A program made the position numbers and the translations under genes. This document shows positions 5,750 through 54,393 of a DNA stretch of 64,000 nt, in pieces. The stretch lies in IMG/VR virus record IMGVR_UViG_3300025534_000182, positions 1 to 64,000 of that record; one strand, written 5' to 3'. The DNA comes from a virus. The notes beneath the pieces are model-generated. The model made no database searches and had not been told where the DNA came from. It saw nothing but the letters and a program-made list of their open reading frames with translations. Numbering within the stretch: position 1 is the stretch's first letter; the number at the start of each line of letters is the position of its first letter.

Positions 5750-6095
5750 TCTTTTTAGCCTCCTCTAAGAAGATTTCTACGTCTTTTTTGGTTCCGCTTA
5801 GTTCGAACTTATGTATAATTGGGACATTATATTTGGCAGCAATTATGTCTGCCGCAACCGCAAAATTATTTCCCCAATTGCGGTTACCGCTTGAAGCTAC
5901 ACCAATTAAGTATTGATGATTTTTTTCTAAAAAAGTCATTACATTTTTAGGTACTTCACCAAATCCGATAGTGTATGTAATTAATATGAATTTTTCATTA
6001 ACCATTAAATCTTCTTTTAATTGAATACAAGGTAGCTCTAATTTCGTTACAAATCTTTTTACATTACCTGTTTTTGAATCATATGCAATTAACAA
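5721..6095 (-). CDS. nrdI: NrdI flavodoxin-like protein
   Basis: 124 aa starting (TTG) LIAYDSKTGNVKRF, typical of NrdI. Lies upstream of nrdE in the canonical nrdI-nrdE-nrdF order. Confidence 0.8.
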   Translation of the reverse strand: MLIAYDSKTGNVKRFVTKLELPCIQLKEDLMVNEKFILITYTIGFGEVPKNVMTFLEKNHQYLIGVASSGNRNWGNNFAVAADIIAAKYNVPIIHKFELSGTKKDVEIFLEEAKKIVAANSKMD

Positions 6096-6681: not shown

Positions 6682-6730
6682 TTGACACTCCCCATGCCTA
6701 AAGGCAGGGGCTTTCTGGTGGTGTGTGATT
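6682..6730 (-). mobile_element. 49-bp miniature IS200/IS605-derived element: RE terminus ...GAGTGTCAA, one subterminal hairpin, LE-type flank, with TTAC immediately 5'
   Basis: 49/49 identity to the LE side of the TnpB element (31796-31844) plus the shared terminal ttgacactc. TAM-like TTAC on the minus strand at 6731-6734. Confidence 0.55.
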
Positions 6731-6776
6731 GTAAATTTTCACTTTCATTTTTCCTCATCCTTTCATCTTGTATTTA

Positions 6777-45331: not shown

Positions 45332-45731
45332 ATCTCCATGCGAATATTGAATATCTATCCATCGCAATGATCTCCTCAATATCTCCCATTTGAATAATAA
45401 ACTGTTCAATATCATTAAAATCGTATGGCCCCATATCTCCCCTCGTTTTACTTAATCTTTTTAGAACTGTTGGAAGATGTATTCCAAAACAACCTTCTCT
45501 TTGCGGATTTACTGTTAATTCTTCCGCTGCAATTGAAATACTAAGCATATTGTCTACAAATTCTTCCGCCATTTTTCTTTTAAAAGGACAATTTATTGGC
45601 ACATAAATATAATTTTTATCCCACGGTATTTTTCCTTTTCCAAACCAAATTATCATCCACATAGGACATAATTTATCATTGAAATAATCATAATATACAG
45701 ATATCTTTGCCACCCTAATCCACATCCACAA
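45330..45731 (-). CDS. hypothetical protein
   Basis: 133-aa ORF. Confidence 0.5.
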   Translation of the reverse strand: MWMWIRVAKISVYYDYFNDKLCPMWMIIWFGKGKIPWDKNYIYVPINCPFKRKMAEEFVDNMLSISIAAEELTVNPQREGCFGIHLPTVLKRLSKTRGDMGPYDFNDIEQFIIQMGDIEEIIAMDRYSIFAWR

Positions 45732-46461
45732 TGTAACTTTTTACTTGACCTTGAATCATAACATCATTTAAGGATAAAATCCTTGGTTCAACTTTAGGGT
45801 TGGACGCTTGCAGTATCACATTGTTCCCTTCGTAGTAAATTCTTTTAAGCGTTGCTTCTTCTCCGTCAATTAATACCACTCCTATTTTTCCATTCTCTAC
45901 ATAATTTTGACGACGAATAAGCACTTTGCATCCATCTGTTATACCATCTCCGATCATACTGTCTCCTTTGACTATTAAATAAAAATATTCACCATCTGAA
46001 ACTAATTTTTTTGAAACAACCTCATATCCTATAATATTCTGTTCGGCTATCAAATCATATCCAGCCTTGATTGTTCCATAAATTGGTATCTCAACAATAT
46101 TAGAATCATAAATATTAATAATGTCTTGTTGAAGCGAATTGTTTTTAACTTGTGATTTTCTATATGCTTCCATAATTTTTGATATAACAGAATCACTTTT
46201 CTTTTTTATTTGTTCTATTTTATGCGTCAAGTCATCTTCATTTAAGTATCCTGCTCTTCGTAACAATTCTTCATACGTGATGTATTTAAAACATTTTGAC
46301 AATTGCTCTAATATTTCAGGACTGGTTCTTGTAGTTCCAGATTCAAGTCTACTAATTGTCGCATGGTTAACTCCTGACTTCTCAGCTAGTTCACGTTGCG
46401 AATTATATCCTTCTCTTTTTCTTATTTCTGCGAAGAATTCACCAAACTCCTTTAAATCCAT
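45715..46461 (-). CDS. CI/LexA-like repressor (N-terminal XRE HTH plus C-terminal S24 peptidase)
   Basis: QRELAEKSGVNHATISRLESG HTH. C-terminal GDSMIGDGITDGCKVLIRRQ...K S24 Ser/Lys dyad. The start was set at MDLKEF. Confidence 0.7.
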   Translation of the reverse strand: MDLKEFGEFFAEIRKREGYNSQRELAEKSGVNHATISRLESGTTRTSPEILEQLSKCFKYITYEELLRRAGYLNEDDLTHKIEQIKKKSDSVISKIMEAYRKSQVKNNSLQQDIINIYDSNIVEIPIYGTIKAGYDLIAEQNIIGYEVVSKKLVSDGEYFYLIVKGDSMIGDGITDGCKVLIRRQNYVENGKIGVVLIDGEEATLKRIYYEGNNVILQASNPKVEPRILSLNDVMIQGQVKSYIVDVD

Positions 46462-46493
46462 ATTAATCACCCAAGATATAATGATATCATGTA

Positions 46494-46531
46494 TGTTGCT
46501 TACATGCAACATTATAAAAAAGTGTTGCAAC
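46494..46531. promoter_or_regulatory. operator palindromes TGTTGC-N6-GCAACA (46494-46511) and GTTGCAAC (46524-46531) in the divergent promoter region
   Basis: Overlap candidate -35 hexamers TTGCAT-17-TATCAT (repressor) and TTGCAA-17-TACTAT (plus-strand gene). Confidence 0.5.
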
Positions 46532-46592
46532 TTACGAACGTATGTGCTACTATAAAACTACCAAGGGTTTAGAAACGAGAGGAGAATCGGCA

Positions 46593-46865
46593 ATGGAAGT
46601 TAAAGTATTTATCTGCATTGTTAATAGTAGCAAAAACAGTAACATTTGTGAATGGCTGTTAACTATCAATGAAAAATATGCCAACCAGATAGATCGGAAT
46701 TATAGTTTAGCAACCATTGATGATTTGCATGATTGGGTTGCAGCCACAGGTGAAGTGTTTAGTGGTATCTTAACAATTAAAGAAGGTCGTTGCGAATGGA
46801 CTGAAACCGAATACATAAATCATCTTGGTGATATAGATATTAAGTGTGGTTATGAATTGTTATAG
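46593..46865 (+). CDS. hypothetical protein (divergent early gene)
   Basis: AGAGGAGAA SD before the ATG at 46593. Confidence 0.45.
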   Translation: MEVKVFICIVNSSKNSNICEWLLTINEKYANQIDRNYSLATIDDLHDWVAATGEVFSGILTIKEGRCEWTETEYINHLGDIDIKCGYELL

Positions 46866-46895
46866 CCTATCCGAATAGGATAGGCTATATTATTA
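46863..46895 (+). terminator. hairpin tagcctatcc-gaat-aggataggcta followed by a U-rich tract
   Basis: Perfect 10-bp stem at the end of the plus-strand gene. Confidence 0.5.
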
Positions 46896-47125
46896 ATAAA
46901 ATGCGGATTTCATCACCTCATATACTTAATTTCATTTCCAATCAATATTAGAAAAATAGCTGTTATTGTAATTGGAAACCATATATTTGTATTTAATTCA
47001 CCTGAAACATATCCAAACCATATGATAACAATAGTATAGACTAGAGCAATGGTTGGAAATATTTTGTTTAATATTTCGTATATTTTAAAAACCTCCCCTG
47101 ACAGTTAAATACGAATTTTATTGTA

Positions 47126-47440
47126 TTATAGAATCGCCTTATCATATTTAGTTAAAATATCATAAATTTTCTTTCTGTCATATTCATCAATCATACTTAA
47201 ATCAACCTTCAACGTAATATTAGATTTTTGAATTACATCAAAAAGGGTATCTCTTTGTGATTGATTTAAAAGATATATATTTGATATTTTTTCAAACCAA
47301 TCTTTTGGTATATTTCTCTTGCCCCTTTCAACTGCCGAAAGATAGGATGGAGTAACACCTAATTTATCCGCCATATCCTTCAGTAACTCACCTTTATCAA
47401 TTCTTAACTTCCTACAAAACTTTCCGAATGGTGTTAACAT
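47126..47440 (-). CDS. XRE-family HTH transcriptional regulator
   Basis: GKFCRKLRIDKGELLKDMADKLGVTPSYLSAVERGKR. Confidence 0.6.
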   Translation of the reverse strand: MLTPFGKFCRKLRIDKGELLKDMADKLGVTPSYLSAVERGKRNIPKDWFEKISNIYLLNQSQRDTLFDVIQKSNITLKVDLSMIDEYDRKKIYDILTKYDKAIL

Positions 47441-47483
47441 TCCTTCACTTCCCATGAAACACAAATTTTATTTACCATCACAT

Positions 47484-47714
47484 TTAATCATCTGATTCTT
47501 TCTTACTGTCTTCTTTATTTAATAATTCAACACACAAATTTATACATTCATCACAAATATACACCCCATTACCAGCGACAAGTTTTGAGACAGAACTTTG
47601 AGACTTCCCGCAGAATGAACAAGATACTTCCTTTATGGTAATTGGGAACTTAATTAACTCATCGTATTTTTTAGCTTTCTCAAAGATAGAATATAGAGTT
47701 TTTTCATCTAACAT
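47484..47714 (-). CDS. standalone ClpX-type N-terminal zinc-binding (ZB) domain protein
   Basis: [34 protein letters not shown] parallels the ClpX N-domain C4 motif. The start was set at MLDEK, which has an AGGAGGAAAG SD. Confidence 0.5.
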
Positions 47715-47751
47715 AAATACTTTCCTCCTATAAAATACCGATTTCCTTGGA

Positions 47752-48045
47752 TCAATTTTTATCATGTAATTTCTCGACATAGCTGTTATAGACTGAATCT
47801 AAATGTTGCATTACTATTTGATATTGCTGTAATGACATCCACTTCATCAAGGCATCTTTAGCCAACTGTACGTAAAGCCAGTTATAAAGGTTTTCTTTTT
47901 CAAACGGTGAAAAACTTTTATCCGACTTCTCCACATTATCAAACATCAAACTAAACCGATCTGTTATTGTCTTGATCATTCGCTCCATGTTTTTATACTT
48001 TATATCTTTTGCTGTGTGCATGTTATGCCGCCCCTTCTTCTTCAA
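47752..48045 (-). CDS. hypothetical protein
   Basis: 97-aa ORF. Confidence 0.45.
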
Positions 48046-48198
48046 TCTTGGTCATAGTTTATCACTTCCGTTATATTTTATGAAATTTACAATAATTTAT
48101 TTTTAATATGTTCAATCTGATTTATTTTTAGCACACCTCATCCAATTCGTTATAGCGTTTAAATTCCCATCCTATTTTTATGTCTTCATTAACATATG

Positions 48199-48250
48199 TA
48201 TTCGCCTTACTCATGACTAAATTCACGAGTGTGCGGCGAATGCTTTATCA
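48199..48250 (-). ncRNA. two-stem structured element, copy 2 (outer stem attcgcc/ggcgaat)
   Basis: See 39985..40030. Confidence 0.4.
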
Positions 48251-48477
48251 ATATAATTTCGATATTCCATACCCTTCAAATATGCGCCGGTCTGTTCTCC
48301 GATTGGTTCATGCTTAAATCCATTAATGTAGTCCTTTGCATCCTGTTCGAAGAAAAACGATTCTAACGGCAACACACACCATTCAGAAAAGATAAAATAT
48401 TGTTTATCAATTTTTTTATGTAAGTTTTGTATTATTCATTTTTTAATTTACTCCTTTATGATGATGAAATTCACTTT

Positions 48478-48708
48478 TTATCGTATTTCTAATATTTCAC
48501 ACTTAACTGTTTTTTCAAGATAAGTATAAACATCATCTAAACTATCTGTTTGAAAATTTCCCATAATGTTACCGCTGCCAGTGTTAACAAGTCTGTATTT
48601 ATGGGTATCTTGATCTTCCACTATCAAATAATTTAATATTAATCCAGACTTATTGTGTATTGCTGTTATCCGATTTCCCTTTTTCAAGTTTGCAATACTC
48701 ATAATCAA
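48478..48708 (-). CDS. hypothetical protein (TTG/ATG start unclear)
   Basis: 76-aa ORF with no clear SD. Confidence 0.3.
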   Translation of the reverse strand: MIMSIANLKKGNRITAIHNKSGLILNYLIVEDQDTHKYRLVNTGSGNIMGNFQTDSLDDVYTYLEKTVKCEILEIR

Positions 48709-48901
48709 AAATTGTATTTATTATCATTTCTTTTGAGTCATTCACCAAACCCCTTAAGAAAAATTTTTTATTTACATTCTTCACATATTGATATTCTCCA
48801 AAATTTGTCTTCATCTTTGGGGAAAATTTCCTTTTCCATCCATTTCCCACAAATACCGCACCAACCACCAGTATCAAGATCACTAATCTTATAATATCCA
48901 A
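48650..48901 (-). CDS. hypothetical membrane-anchored protein
   Basis: N-terminal TM helix IIRLVILILVVGAVFV. Confidence 0.4.
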   Translation of the reverse strand: MDIIRLVILILVVGAVFVGNGWKRKFSPKMKTNFGEYQYVKNVNKKFFLRGLVNDSKEMIINTIFDYEYCKLEKGKSDNSNTQ

Positions 48902-48950
48902 AGTATCGTAAAATTTTTTTAATCAAACTCATTCACATCCTCAAAAAGAC

Positions 48951-49130
48951 TTATTTTATAGCCAATTCAAAATTCTTAATTAATACTTGTGTTCCATGTG
49001 ATTCAAGATTTCCTTTATTAAATTTTTTTGTTTTAAAACGTACTGTCATTAATTCCTCATCATTTATGTAACTGACAATTGCTCTTTCTCCTGTTATTTT
49101 ACTTATTACTTCATCATTCGGTTTGAACAT
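48951..49130 (-). CDS. small hypothetical protein (59 aa)
   Basis: GGAGATGATAATATAA-ATG. Below the cutoff. Confidence 0.4.
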   Translation of the reverse strand: MFKPNDEVISKITGERAIVSYINDEELMTVRFKTKKFNKGNLESHGTQVLIKNFELAIK

Positions 49131-49380
49131 TTATATTATCATCTCCTATATTTTGAATTAACTCTTGATATGCACTAAAAACTATATCAACATCTTCAAG
49201 TGCATAATCACACCTACTCAAATCAGTTAAAGTCAATTCATATGCTTCATCAATATCTAATTTATAAACTAAACTACAATATTGTATATAACTTTTATAA
49301 TATTCTTTATCTCTTTTATGTTGATTTATAATTATCTTTAAATCATTTATTTTAATACTAATCACCCTCTTTACTATCAA
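49114..49380 (-). CDS. hypothetical protein
   Basis: 88-aa ORF. Confidence 0.5.
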   Translation of the reverse strand: MIVKRVISIKINDLKIIINQHKRDKEYYKSYIQYCSLVYKLDIDEAYELTLTDLSRCDYALEDVDIVFSAYQELIQNIGDDNINVQTE

Positions 49381-49389
49381 ATACTTCTC

Positions 49390-49566
49390 TTATTGTCTTT
49401 CCATGTCTTCCATTTTCATTAGCACTTGATCCATTCCTCTCGCTATTGCCGCAATATAATCGCTGTCAGATTTACACAGTCCTAACGACTGAGACTCTTC
49501 ATATTTTTTCGGAACTGCCCTGATTAACCATTGCTTTAATTCATCCCATGCTTTTTCCTTGTCCAT
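49390..49566 (-). CDS. small hypothetical protein (58 aa)
   Basis: GGGAGATG SD 8 nt before the ATG. Below the cutoff. Confidence 0.45.
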   Translation of the reverse strand: MDKEKAWDELKQWLIRAVPKKYEESQSLGLCKSDSDYIAAIARGMDQVLMKMEDMERQ

Positions 49567-49596
49567 GTTTAATCATCTCCCATTAAAAGAATCCTT

Positions 49597-49836
49597 TTAT
49601 CGGCTATAACCACTTACTAAAGCTAAAATTTCACTGTGATACATTGGAGCAGTTCTATATACTTCTTTTAATGTATGGGCGTCTAAAATTCTGTCTCTGT
49701 TTCCCATGATTTCTTTTAAACTCTCTAATGTTTCAGAAATCGCAATTTGTTTCCATCTCCAAGTAACTACATCTGTTATAAATTCATTAATTACTGCTCT
49801 TTCAAGGATATAATTAACTTTCATTTTTAATTTCAA
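49597..49836 (-). CDS. hypothetical protein
   Basis: 79-aa ORF. Confidence 0.5.
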   Translation of the reverse strand: MKLKMKVNYILERAVINEFITDVVTWRWKQIAISETLESLKEIMGNRDRILDAHTLKEVYRTAPMYHSEILALVSGYSR

Positions 49837-49862
49837 CCTCCATTAAAATATTCATTTTATCA

Positions 49863-50072
49863 TCAATCATTTCCGTACATACCAATCATTTCATAACCGT
49901 TATATCTTCCCAATCCATCACCCTTTTCTATTAAATGCCACCCAACATATGTTATAACACAATCTTCTGTTCCTTCAACGTAGCAAACAATATCCTTACC
50001 AAATTTATAGTGTGACTGTTTTTGTGTATTGATTTCTCGATTACATACCTTGCAAACTGCTTTTCTCGCCAT
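49863..50072 (-). CDS. small Cys-rich protein
   Basis: CKVC...C...C. Confidence 0.45.
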   Translation of the reverse strand: MARKAVCKVCNREINTQKQSHYKFGKDIVCYVEGTEDCVITYVGWHLIEKGDGLGRYNGYEMIGMYGND

Positions 50073-50102
50073 CTTTTATCCCTCCCTCATAAAAGGATCA
50101 AT

Positions 50103-50369
50103 TTATTTAAATCTCTTATCAAGTCTTTTCTTTGTTGCTCTAAGTTTTGTTTCAAACTTTACAAGATCAGTCATTGATAATTTATATCTTGCATCTTCAT
50201 AAAGTCCTTTTTCTAGCTTATGATAAGCTTTATAGAGAGAATCATATTCTTCATCTTTTACTCCTTCTTTCAAACAACTATTTATGTAACCGATCCCAGT
50301 AGTCAACCAATATTTTAATTCTTGTTTATCCATAAACTCATCTCCCAATAAAAATATTAGTTTTATCAT
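50103..50369 (-). CDS. hypothetical protein
   Basis: 88-aa ORF. Confidence 0.5.
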   Translation of the reverse strand: MIKLIFLLGDEFMDKQELKYWLTTGIGYINSCLKEGVKDEEYDSLYKAYHKLEKGLYEDARYKLSMTDLVKFETKLRATKKRLDKRFK

Positions 50370-50477
50370 ATAAGTTAAGATAATTTAATGCATATTTTGT
50401 TTATGCCCTATAAAAAATCATACTTTCTATCACAACTTAATATTTAATATTAAGGCGGGAATACGATCCCGCCCTTG

Positions 50478-51590
50478 TTATTTTTCTTTTACCGCTTGAA
50501 TCAGAAGTTGAATACGTTTTTTAACATTAGATTCTTTAGCGCTACCACTTGTCTTTGTATCCCTATAAGAACCAGTATTTTTCACAATCAATGAAGCGGT
50601 TCTTCCGCCAAATGTGTCTGCATCGATATCGTTCATCAATTCAGCAGCAGCACCAGCCAATCCAATAATGTCATTTTTCTTAAGTATTTTCTTTCTGTGT
50701 TTTTCTTCCAGATTTCTGAATGCGTTTGTTAAATAATCGAATACATCAGAAACCTTCTTCTTGTCATCATCCGACATCCCATTAATACGTAAATCGATTG
50801 AAAATTCTCTTACATGTTTGCTACTCATATCATTTAGTCTTCCAGTAACCAAACCAATTACCTGTAAAATTAATTCCTGATCAACAAATTTGTCACGCTG
50901 GTTATCAGTTAATGCCGCCATTTCAAAAAATGGTTTTTGCGCTATGCTGTCAATATATTCTAACCACTCAGAACCAAGAATAGAACGTGTTAGTTCTATT
51001 GCTGAAAGCGGTGTTCCGCTGTTAAGTCGCTTAAATAATTGATCTCTTTGATCTATGGTAAGTCGCTCAAACTGATAAAACGTTAATGTTAGTTCATCAA
51101 AAAACTCTTGAAATTCCTCAGGAAGTTCTGAGAATTTTTTTCCAGTAATATCAACACCAAAAGCGTTTGGTAATTCACTTAATTCCCATTCGTCTTTGCA
51201 AAAGCTAATAAGCGTAGTCAATCTTTGTTTTCCATCCAGCACCCATAAACTGTTATCTTCGCTTTTGATCGAATATATTGCTGGAATCGGATATCCCAAA
51301 ATAACAGATTCGATAAGAGAACTTTTCTGTTCGCGTGTCCAACGAAGATTACGCTGAATCACAAGATTGAAATTTAACTTTGAAGGATTTTTAACTAACG
51401 ACCGCAATCCAATTTGAATCGCTGGCTGTTTAGCGATTCTTTCTTTTTCAATCCGTTCTCTCAAAGACATATTTTCAACAGTTCCCACCTGAGTAACACT
51501 CCCTTCTTTTTCAAACATATTTTCGTCATAAGTAACCTGATTTCCTTCCTTTACGCTAACATTTTCTTCTAGCGTCAATACTTGTTCCAT
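50478..51590 (-). CDS. DUF262-type ParB-like nuclease/NTPase domain protein (GmrS-like N-domain) without a recognisable HNH partner domain
   Basis: ...LGYPIPAIYSIKSEDNSLWVLDGKQRLTTLISF matches the DUF262 (I/V)DGQQR block. Confidence 0.55.
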   Translation of the reverse strand: MEQVLTLEENVSVKEGNQVTYDENMFEKEGSVTQVGTVENMSLRERIEKERIAKQPAIQIGLRSLVKNPSKLNFNLVIQRNLRWTREQKSSLIESVILGYPIPAIYSIKSEDNSLWVLDGKQRLTTLISFCKDEWELSELPNAFGVDITGKKFSELPEEFQEFFDELTLTFYQFERLTIDQRDQLFKRLNSGTPLSAIELTRSILGSEWLEYIDSIAQKPFFEMAALTDNQRDKFVDQELILQVIGLVTGRLNDMSSKHVREFSIDLRINGMSDDDKKKVSDVFDYLTNAFRNLEEKHRKKILKKNDIIGLAGAAAELMNDIDADTFGGRTASLIVKNTGSYRDTKTSGSAKESNVKKRIQLLIQAVKEK

Positions 51591-51677
51591 GGCACTTTCT
51601 TCCTTTCATAATTTTAATTTTATTATATATAATTTGCTTTTTAAAATCAACCAAAACTTATTTATATTTCTTCGTAT

Positions 51678-52090: not shown

Positions 52091-52375
52091 TTACTCTAAC
52101 GAATCCAAAAATATTTGGACTTCTTTTGGTATATCAGCATGATCTAAATCAATGCGTTCCTCTAGATGATAAACCTTGACTTTCCCATCGATAATTTTAG
52201 CATAATATGAAAAAAGTTCATCATCTGGTATTCTTCCTTGTGCTTTTTTTGTCAATATTTCTTTACGATCAATAAGTTTCATGTGTTCATCATAAACAGA
52301 CATAGTACACATGTAATTGTTTTCATCGTCAATTACTTCTGAGTTACATACACCAAAATATCTAAAGTAAATTCC
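52091..52375 (-). pseudogene. 3' portion of a host ORF separated from its 5' part (54084..54263) by the IS605 insertion
   Basis: The open frame continues from the IS right end with no native start or SD. Joining the two flanks at the predicted IS ends would keep the frame. Confidence 0.35.
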
Positions 52376-52475
52376 TTGACACTCCCCATGCCTAAAGGCA
52401 GGGGATTCTTGGGTAGTCACTTTTACCGAAGTGAAATTGACCAAGCTATCCCCGTGCGTCCCACGGTTCATTTTT
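52376..52475 (-). ncRNA. candidate TnpB omega-RNA scaffold (RE-derived)
   Basis: Structured GC-richer segment between the tnpB stop and the RE end. Confidence 0.4.
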
Positions 52476-53558
52476 TTAAACGGCATATTTCAAAATATTC
52501 TTCGCTGCATTTACATCACGGTCATGGATAATACTACATTTAGTACAAACCCATTCTCTAATACTCAAATCCTTCACTTCTTCATTTTTATATCCACATT
52601 CGCTACATATTTGACTTGAAGCAAAAAAACGATCTATTTTCCTTACTTCTCTTCCATACCATTGTGCCTTATATTCCAATTGTCTTACAAATTCACCCCA
52701 TGACACATCGGCAATATTCCTTGCCAACTTGTCATTCTGCAACATACCTTTTACATTCAAATCTTCAATGGCGATTACTTGGTTTTCGTTAATCAGCCTT
52801 GAAGATAGTTTATGCAAAAAGTCTGTGCGACAATTAGCGATTTTTTCATGAATGCGAGCAACTTTTAATCTTGTCTTTTCTCTGTTCCTACCACCTTTTT
52901 TACGACGATATAATTTTCGTTGCCAATATTTAAGTTTATTGAGATACTTATCTAGATACTTTTGATTTTCAACAATTTCACCATTAGACAAAGTTGCAAA
53001 AGATTTAATACCCAAATCAATGCCAATGGAGTTATTAATTTTAGGTAATGGTTGAATATCAATTTCGCATGTTATAGATATAAAGTATTTTCCTGTTGGA
53101 TTACGTCTAATAGTGGCCTTAATAATTCTACCTTCGACATCTCTTGATTTTGCAAATTTAACTAATCCTAGTTTGGGTAACTGAATTTTATTGCTTTCAA
53201 CTCTAATATTCATTTTAGATGTATAAGATTGTACTGGATTTTTCTTCGATTTATATTTTGGGTATCCAGCGTTTTCTTTTAAAAATTTTTGAAACGCTGA
53301 ATCCAAATTCTTCAATGATGTTTGTAATGCTGTCGAATCAACTTCTTTGAGCCAAGTTAATTCCTTTTTTAGTTTAGTTAATTCACCAGAACAAGAATTA
53401 TAATTCAATGTTTTATTTTCGTTCTCGTATACTTCTTTACGCCTAGAAAGAAAGTGATTATAAACAAATCGGCAACATCCAAATGTTTTGTTAATTAAAA
53501 TTTCTTGCTGTTTATTTGGATAAATACGAAATTTATACGCTTTATGGAATGTTGCCAT
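52476..53558 (-). CDS. tnpB: TnpB (IS605 OrfB)
   Basis: [10 protein letters not shown] (RuvC-I), [12 protein letters not shown] (RuvC-II), CSECG...CTKCS zinc finger, [11 protein letters not shown] (RuvC-III). Confidence 0.85.
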
Positions 53559-53563
53559 TTTGT

Positions 53564-53968
53564 TTAATCACTCCTTTCTTTTTGGTTTTCAATATATTGT
53601 TTTACTACTTCTAACGAAATTGAACCAACTGTTGCAACAAAATATGAATTAGTCCACATTGACGGCAAACGACTTTTAAGATGTTTAAATTCTTGTCTCA
53701 AAATCCTTGATGAATATCCTTTTAAATGTTTTACTACCCGATGTATTCCAAATTGCGGATCACATTTAATCAACAAATGAACATGATCAGGCATTATTTC
53801 CATTTCAACAATTTCTGCATTTAATTCTTTTATTTTATTATTAAAAAGCTCTTTAAGTCTTTTATCAACAGGATCTATTAATACATTTTTTCTGTATTTT
53901 GGACAAAAAACAACATGGTACTTGCAATCATATACAATATTATTATTTGAATTTATATCTCTTGACAT
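53564..53968 (-). CDS. tnpA: IS200-type HUH Y1 transposase TnpA
   Basis: [12 protein letters not shown] ... MPDHVHLLI (HuH) ... catalytic Tyr region YSSRIL. The ATG start has a GGGTGA SD. Confidence 0.85.
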
Positions 53969-53986
53969 TTCTTTCACCCAATTATT

Positions 53987-54015
53987 AGTATATACAAAAA
54001 TGTTAGATATGTCAA
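53987..54015 (-). promoter_or_regulatory. tnpA promoter TTGACA-17-TATACT inside the IS left end
   Basis: Read on the minus strand: cttgacatatctaacatttttgtatatact. Confidence 0.5.
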
Positions 54016-54083
54016 GTCTATCTAACGCTATATCGCCTTATATCCCCATGAGTAAACGCAGGGGTTTTACGCGACATCATATA

Positions 54084-54263
54084 ATTAAATGTTCTAATCA
54101 AACATACATCTTGTGTTAGTTGTTCAATAAGCAAATAGCGCCTATAATCTTTAATTTTTTCTGACGGTTCAATCTCATTATTCGTTTCAATTGAAAAATA
54201 AACCAAATTCAATTTCCGGCTTTCCTGAAAAAATGCTAAACGATTTAAAATCAATACTTCCAT
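54084..54263 (-). pseudogene. 5' portion of the host ORF disrupted by IS605 (its ORF continues 22 codons into the IS left end)
   Basis: MEVLILNRLAFFQE...LIRTFN then the IS-encoded YMMSRKTPAFTHGDIRRYSVR*. Confidence 0.35.
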
Positions 54264-54393
54264 CTAAACCATCAATGCCATCCTTGGGATAAACTAACAC
54301 ATACTTCCCAAACCCTTCATTTGTTCTTTTAAAAATAACATCATTCATAATTAAAACTTCCATTTATTAAATTAAAACATTTTAAACGAAAAA

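Follow-up and report, generated by a model that had tools for sequence, protein, structure and literature searches.

The 64,000-nucleotide (nt) stretch of viral DNA analyzed here (positions 1 to 64,000 of IMG/VR record IMGVR_UViG_3300025534_000182, hereafter the window) carries on its minus strand a complete and, judging by its sequence, functional insertion sequence (IS) of the IS200/IS605 family. It is an IS608-type element with both tnpA and tnpB and spans 52376..54080 (1705 bp; the top strand of the element is the minus strand of the window). Our reading is that this intact element was inserted 3' of the tetranucleotide TTAT in a phage gene that also carries a frameshift, and we put the probability of this full reading at roughly 0.88. 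The insertion itself is biologically ordinary, a mobile-element insertion of the familiar IS200/IS605 sort.

Genes and ends of the element

The first gene, tnpA (53564..53968, minus strand), encodes a 134-amino-acid (aa) Y1 HUH transposase that matches Pfam Y1_Tnp (PF01797) at 1.4e-44. The HUH motif of this protein reads HVH (residues 62-64), and YIENQ holds its catalytic tyrosine, Y125. The start of tnpA is likelier to be the ATG at 53968 than the listed GTG at 53977. On the same strand, 5 nt downstream, tnpB (52476..53558) encodes a 360-aa homolog of RNA-guided nucleases with matches to HTH_OrfB_IS605 (PF12323), OrfB_IS605 (PF01385), and Cas12f1-like_TNB (PF07282), the RuvC D-E-D residues D181, E265, and D348 in the motifs GIDLG, AIEDL, and HDRD, and a CxxC...CxxC zinc ribbon. 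The closest solved structures are those of ISHp608 TnpA (2a6m; E 9.5e-49, 57% identity over 126 aa without gaps) and ISDra2 TnpB (8h1j and 8bf8; E 4e-99). Between the left hairpin and tnpA lies a putative promoter, TTGACA-17-TATACT (53987..54015, minus strand), which agrees with the consensus at 11 of 12 positions; no other site in the region resembles a promoter so closely. An earlier reading of the letters alone (the original prediction) had called both the complete tnpA-tnpB element, with its HUH, tyrosine, and RuvC motifs, and this internal promoter-like site, and on these points it was right. Phages are already known to carry IS200/IS605 elements, and both TnpA and TnpB have families in PHROGs.

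Beyond the Y1 HUH transposase and a TnpB with helix-turn-helix, RuvC, and zinc-ribbon/TNB domains, the element has the other hallmarks of the IS200/IS605 family: subterminal imperfect palindromes at both ends, on one strand and with no terminal inverted repeats; a guide tetranucleotide 5' of each hairpin that pairs with a cleavage site; and insertion 3' of a short motif with no target-site duplication. TTAT occurs on the left side only; the right flank begins GGAATTT, and the flank sequence is not directly repeated.

At the right end, the palindrome CCCCTGCCTTTAGGCATGGGG (52384..52404, minus strand) is followed by the tail AGTGTCAA, which terminates at 52376, as had been predicted. The tail, ending ...GGGGAGTGTCAA, is common to three copies in the window with unrelated flanks, namely GGAATTT after the tnpA-tnpB element, TCGGAAT after a TnpB-only element, and AAACCAA after a 49-nt mini unit (both described below), and this shared tail running into three different flanks fixes the right boundary. 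Relatives of the TnpB in Peptostreptococcaceae and Clostridium genomes, among them copies in metagenome-assembled genomes, diverge exactly 8 nt past the right hairpin. The relatives in GTDB genomes share at most 64% TnpB identity, their TnpAs are 36% identical, and their left ends come from other lineages, so their use is limited to comparisons of the right end and the omegaRNA. The right guide GAAT (52408..52405, minus strand) occupies the 4 nt 5' of the right hairpin, and the right cleavage site TCAA (52379..52376, minus strand) is the same as in IS608 (PMC5934647). The window holds six occurrences of the hairpin motif where chance predicts 0.02, and the right hairpin folds as single-stranded DNA at -7.8 kcal/mol.

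The putative omegaRNA scaffold (52376..52520, minus strand) starts in the 3' end of tnpB and extends to the terminus of the element, taking in GAAT, the right palindrome, and the AGTGTCAA tail. Past the tnpB stop codon, as far as the right hairpin, the stems show compensatory changes in 5 of 11 pairs across 10 relatives, and the region folds as RNA with a z-score of -1.9. A search of the region against Rfam matched zero families, and the covarying stems upstream of the right hairpin are consistent with an omegaRNA scaffold.

The left end is an imperfect palindrome, CCCCTGCGTTTACTCATGGGG (54044..54064, minus strand; originally placed at 54042-54062), with a bulged T and one C.T stem mismatch, and AT follows it. 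Crystallography has established a pairing rule for IS608, in which A16 pairs with T-3 and A17 with T-4, the guide AAAG specifies TTAC, and the guide lies 4 nt 5' of the hairpin foot (PMC3201880, PMC5934647). A scan of viral contigs for related left ends (pattern AAAN, hairpin, ATATAAG) gave 119 matches, of which 101 were distinct. In multi-copy families, similarity starts directly after TTAN, where N is the complement of the fourth guide base. A fourth base A goes with T before the cleavage site in 46/46 related left ends, G with C in 42/45, T with A in 5/5, and C with G in 1/2. The distance from cleavage site to hairpin foot is 15-18 nt in the 101 distinct left ends, and no base upstream of TTAN is conserved. 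This covariation agrees with the IS608 pairing rule (PMC5934647), and both pairs at the window's element, GAAT-TCAA and AAAA-TTAT, obey g1:t-3, g2:t-4, and g4:t-1 (rule from PMC5934647). Because the window's left guide is AAAA (54068..54065), the 46/46 rule places the target at TTAT (54084..54081, minus strand) in the host flank and the first base of the element at 54080, with a linker of 16 nt (ATGATGTCGCGT plus the guide, 54065..54080, minus strand); with a slash marking the cut, the left end reads ...ACATTTAATTAT/ATGATGTCGCGTAAAA-hairpin. By analogy, TTAT would also be the target-adjacent motif (TAM) of the TnpB (after Meers et al., 10.1101/2023.03.14.532601). The comparison of 101 elements offers a design rule for this IS608-like clade, in which the target and the predicted TAM are TTA plus the complement of the fourth left-guide base, with a 15-18-nt linker; the rule helps to predict the TAMs of uncharacterized TnpBs.

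The interrupted host gene

Judged by homology and coding signal, the element lies within a real phage accessory gene that would ancestrally have encoded about 183 aa, from 54348 to 52091. An exhaustive HMMER scan of the reconstructed host protein against 1.84 billion representatives matched one intact protein of 163 aa (P0004; E 2e-8) in a single stretch over query residues 7-166, and BLASTP of the reconstruction against P0004 gives 3e-16. P0004 is encoded on phage contigs of 65-149 kb. Within 6 kb on each side of it lie GmrSD_N, PemK, DndB, and MrpR-type genes with counterparts at window 36000-51600, and its source is a syntenic, distantly related large phage. In tblastn, P0004 maps to the window as three colinear pieces, each in its own frame, whose borders adjoin a run of T and the ends of the IS. 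Residues 4-50 fall at 54342..54196 in the frame of a 53/58-aa open reading frame (ORF), residues 64-87 at 54155..54084 (54% identity, with the motif DYxRYLLIExLT..IR.F), and residues 91-163 at 52378..52157 in the downstream ORF, all on the minus strand.

The host gene can accordingly be laid out in three minus-strand pieces: 54196..54348, codons 1-51 (MNDVIFKRT...EFGLF), in the 58-aa ORF frame and starting at the ATG at 54348 (MNDVIF..., compared with MKKDIF... in P0004); 54081..54194, 38 codons (SIETNN...DYRRYLLIEQLTQDVCLIRTFNY) up to the IS; and 52091..52375, 94 codons and the stop (GIYFRYFG...DSLE*). Between the first two lies a run of five T (54194..54198, minus strand) that shifts the frame by +1 and that we interpret as a 1-nt insertion relative to P0004; with one T deleted, the alignment to P0004 is gapless across the site. 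The gene is therefore a pseudogene twice over, by the IS and by the 1-nt frameshift. The prediction that the insertion sits inside one gene has gained an intact homolog spanning both flanks, and in-frame joining of the flanks on excision also stands. The proposed product of about 155 aa starting at 54263 does not, because the gene starts at 54348 in another frame; nor would excision of the IS alone restore the gene, since the frameshift at the T run remains. We considered programmed +1 frameshifting at UUU_UUC and set it aside, as the site lacks a stall codon and one ORF encodes the whole homolog.

For annotation, the 53/58-aa, 81-aa, and 131-aa ORFs are pieces of a single accessory gene that has been inactivated, and the ends of the IS are set to the base. 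The Joint Genome Institute (JGI) gene calls include a chimeric 126-aa ORF (52471 to 52091) whose first 32 residues come from the right end and omegaRNA region of the IS, and this ORF is an annotation artifact created by the insertion.

Further searches for the host gene family added little. We found zero matches to the joined protein by tblastn against phages, none that could be confirmed in a back-translated scan of viral contigs, and, among 5.8 billion proteins in a word-indexed search, only the chimeric ORF of a sister contig (L001, below); a search with P0004 returned zero further family members. An AlphaFold2 model of the host protein from the two-sequence alignment reached a mean predicted local distance difference test score of 65, with one of five models reasonable. 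In that low-confidence model, packed beta-strands flank the junction, and the support this gives is weak. Foldseek of the model against the PDB gave zero matches at E <= 0.001, and a 62-residue resemblance to T7 Gp1.2 is weak (E 0.5).

Several observations weigh against the reading given at the outset. No second copy of the exact IS was found in plasmid, viral-contig, or GTDB searches (blastn against plasmids returned only tnpB genes of about 65% identity), the exact left hairpin has zero occurrences in viral contigs, and the closest TnpB relatives are 57-64% identical. The left hairpin, with its C.T mismatch, folds as DNA at only -2.8 kcal/mol, which may reduce activity. The predicted empty-site junction, ...AACATTTAATTAT/GGAATTTACTTT, was sought in metagenome and viral contigs with exact patterns allowing a 0-4-nt gap and with codon-degenerate patterns. 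No empty site, which the original prediction had suggested looking for in related phages, was found at the DNA level in phage, viral-contig, or metagenome-contig searches, and the exact junction consequently rests on the comparison of related elements. The host-gene family has one other member, P0004, at 28-30% identity. The only other copy of the locus is on the sister contig (JGI metagenome contig 3300002918, 25.8 kb), which matches the window base for base along 20.4 kb, carries the same insertion, and so is not independent evidence; the two assemblies probably share data. The T run reads the same on that contig. An assembly error may have produced the extra T; because both assemblies are identical, they do not separate a real T from a spurious one.

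The alternative that best survives these points is that the element is a decaying, immobile relic, which we consider improbable though by no means negligible. The weak, mismatched left hairpin, the single known copy, and the degraded relatives in the same genome (the TnpB-only element and a 49-nt single-hairpin relic) would all fit it. Against it, both ORFs are full length with their catalytic motifs, both guides fit their cleavage sites, and stem mismatches are frequent among multi-copy related left ends. Mobility has its sole support in the uninterrupted homolog at the protein level, P0004.

Somewhat less probable still is that there is no frameshift lesion, either because the gene starts at an ATG at 54263 and overlaps a separate 53/58-aa gene or because the extra T is an assembly error, so that excision would restore the gene. 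The 81-aa frame is indeed open from 54263, homopolymer errors do happen, and the two identical assemblies probably derive from shared data. However, P0004 residues 4-50 map to the 53-aa ORF, in a frame other than that of residues 64-87. With the window's long ORFs as the training set, a profile of codon log-odds is positive in the 53/58-aa ORF frame to about 54200, with the 81-aa ORF frame negative there; over 54263..54200 it favors the 53-aa ORF, and it then switches frame and stays positive across the IS join. An overlap of 77 nt would be unusual for two genes, and a run of five T is short for a systematic Illumina error.

The left boundary had originally been set at 54083 by carrying over the 19-nt spacing between cut and hairpin foot that is known for IS608 (PMC3201880); the element would then be 52376..54083, and the cut would follow ...TTTAAT. 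The reading frame has no say in the matter, as both boundaries give an in-frame join (...RTFNY/GIYF... for 54080 and ...RTFN/GIYF... for 54083); nor can the P0004 alignment, with its 3-aa gap at the junction, separate boundaries 3 nt apart. The related left ends do separate them. TAAT breaks the pairing rule for guide AAAA, all 46 AAAA left ends are cut after TTAT, linkers run from 15 to 18 nt and never to 19, and a left end almost the same as the window's (L134, TTAT/ATGATGCGCCGTAAAA) begins ATGATG directly after TTAT. The boundary at 54083 is thus very improbable. The earlier view that the target is not TTAC was correct, and the flank reads ...AATTAT/ instead of the ...TTTAAT/ that had been proposed.

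Finally, an in-frame join is by itself a 1-in-3 event, both flanks have zero Pfam or PHROG matches, and JGI called only the 53-aa ORF upstream and the chimeric ORF downstream, all of which would suit an IS lying between two independent genes or chance ORFs, but we discount this almost entirely: one intact 163-aa protein is colinear over both flanks, and the motif conserved best in it stops 3 nt short of the IS, the coding signal is unbroken across the join, and the right flank has no in-frame start with a Shine-Dalgarno sequence, the first 37 codons of ORF 52091..52486 being supplied by the IS, as had been noted.

Related units in the window and in other phages

The TnpB-only element of the window (30518..31833, minus strand) has the guide AAAG and the target TTAC, and its TnpB is 27% identical to that of the tnpA-tnpB element; the divergence and the different guide and target make these two distinct IS elements, as predicted. 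They have nearly the same hairpins and an identical AGTGTCAA tail, and it is plausible from these shared ends that the window's single TnpA could mobilize both. The TnpB-only element sits in an NT5C (PF06941) deoxyribonucleotidase gene, with flanks at 31998..31834 (hidden Markov model positions 4-54) and 30517..30322 (positions 123-174), so that the host gene has lost about 68 codons and its two parts no longer share a frame. This is an insertion with an adjacent deletion of about 200 bp.

The 49-nt unit (6682..6730, minus strand) follows a TTAC target (6734..6731) and consists of one hairpin and the tail AGTGTCAA behind a left linker, AATCACACACCACCAGAAAG, identical to that of the TnpB-only element. 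It lies six codons into a small ORF with a good Shine-Dalgarno sequence (ATG 6748..6746), and its removal restores an ORF of 32 aa. The unit probably arose when a former copy lost the DNA separating its left and right hairpins. The one guide left to it, AAAG, is unable to pair with TCAA, so the unit is likely to be immobile. Eleven viral-contig stretches (L140-L150) with differing linkers and flanks are built in the same way (TTAN, 12-13 nt, AAAN, one hairpin, AGTGTCAA); two of them (L141 and L146) are the same site, which leaves 10 distinct single-hairpin sites. Such relics are recurrent in phage genomes, and one lies just upstream of the P0004 gene (L136, about 5812..5857).

Directly downstream of the P0004 gene, in a small ORF and following CTTTAC/, the same contig carries a TnpB-less derivative of the TnpB-only family of about 255 nt (L136, 6546..6801) with left end, omegaRNA region, and right end; excised in silico, it restores an ORF of 57 aa. 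A deletion derivative of about 340 nt in GC-rich DNA (L016, 495..836, on a contig binned as Pirellulales) joins the left hairpin to roughly the final 60 tnpB codons and the right end, and it follows TTAG with the guide AAAC, which fits the guide/target rule.

A more speculative proposal, and one we regard as unlikely, is that IS608-like elements form a self-sustaining community in these large AT-rich phages. One tnpA-tnpB element would supply TnpA in trans to the TnpB-only element and to tiny hairpin derivatives, and TnpB with its omegaRNA would cut IS-free siblings at TTAT or TTAC empty sites during co-infection, in the manner of homing endonucleases. If so, the elements and linked markers would be driven through the phage population, and the single-hairpin units of 46-49 nt (left linker, hairpin, and AGTGTCAA) would be a regular decay product or an undescribed minimal mobile form.

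The window is AT-rich (about 31% GC) and has the look of a section of a large phage genome. Its long ORFs are nearly all on the minus strand, and along its whole length the plus strand shows negative GC skew. No close relative was found in the INPHARED phage collection, and Megablast of the locus with its flanks against 50,697 phage records gave zero matches. Among the neighbors of the locus are a DUF932 gene and, in the surrounding accessory region, genes for GmrSD_N/DUF262 (50478..51590), a PemK-like toxin (44198..44617), a DndB-like protein (37263..38567), and an MrpR-type recombinase (36257..37336). Counterparts of these last four lie on the related 148-kb phage contig that encodes P0004, and the region may be a defense or counter-defense island.

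Proposed mechanism and comparison with known systems

By the mechanism of its family, the element would have entered the accessory gene, whichever of the gene's two lesions came first, by single-strand "peel and paste" insertion 3' of TTAT (54084..54081). TnpA would bind both subterminal hairpins on the top strand, with the 4-nt DNA guides pairing with the cleavage sites (AAAA with TTAT on the left, GAAT with TCAA on the right), and the element would leave as a single-stranded circle, with a right end-left end junction reading ...AGTGTCAA/ATGATGTCGCG..., and reinsert 3' of another TTAT. Precise excision would rejoin ...AATTAT/GGAATTT..., read in frame. The IS200/IS605 family is reported to favor the lagging-strand template, as known from IS608, and the top strands of all three IS608-like units in the window lie on the G-rich sense strand, which fits that preference.

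The right flank GGAATTTACTTTAGAT (52360..52375, minus strand) is the predicted guide segment of the omegaRNA and would match the empty site TTAT/GGAATTT...; with TTAT as TAM, this guide is what ISDra2 and the ISGst elements lead us to expect (PMC8612924; 10.1101/2023.03.14.532601). TnpB with an omegaRNA made of the right end and the adjoining flank would then cut IS-free sites, TTAT followed by GGAATTTACTTTAGAT, which would favor retention or homing of the element.

The ISGst elements of Geobacillus stearothermophilus have the TAM TTTAT, read by both TnpA and TnpB, and their TnpB targets the donor joint (Meers et al., 10.1101/2023.03.14.532601). The likeness, drawn from the published description, lies in the AT-rich TAM and in the presence of TnpB-only and protein-less (PATE-like) relatives that share ends beside one autonomous tnpA element. 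The difference is that the related left ends show no conservation at the fifth base, upstream of TTAT; in the window this flank is ATTAT. In ISDra2 of Deinococcus radiodurans, the omegaRNA derives from the right end and TnpB is an RNA-guided nuclease (PMC8612924). The window's TnpB is close to it (E 4e-99), whereas the target/TAM of ISDra2 is TTGAT, its TnpA is more distant (E 3e-23), and its hairpins are different.

The nearest overall parallel is ISHp608 (IS608) of Helicobacter pylori, with the same tnpA-tnpB order, a TnpA 57% identical, nearly the same hairpin (CCCCT...TTTA...ATGGGG with a bulged T), AT after the left hairpin, the right guide GAAT with the right cleavage site TCAA, and the same logic of guide/cleavage pairing (PMC3201880, PMC5934647). 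The element is nevertheless not IS608 itself, given the identity of its TnpA, its TTAT target, and its other linkers: the left guide and target are AAAA and TTAT instead of AAAG and TTAC, the linkers are 16 nt on the left and 8 nt on the right instead of 19 and 10, the TnpB is closer to that of ISDra2, and the replicon is a phage.

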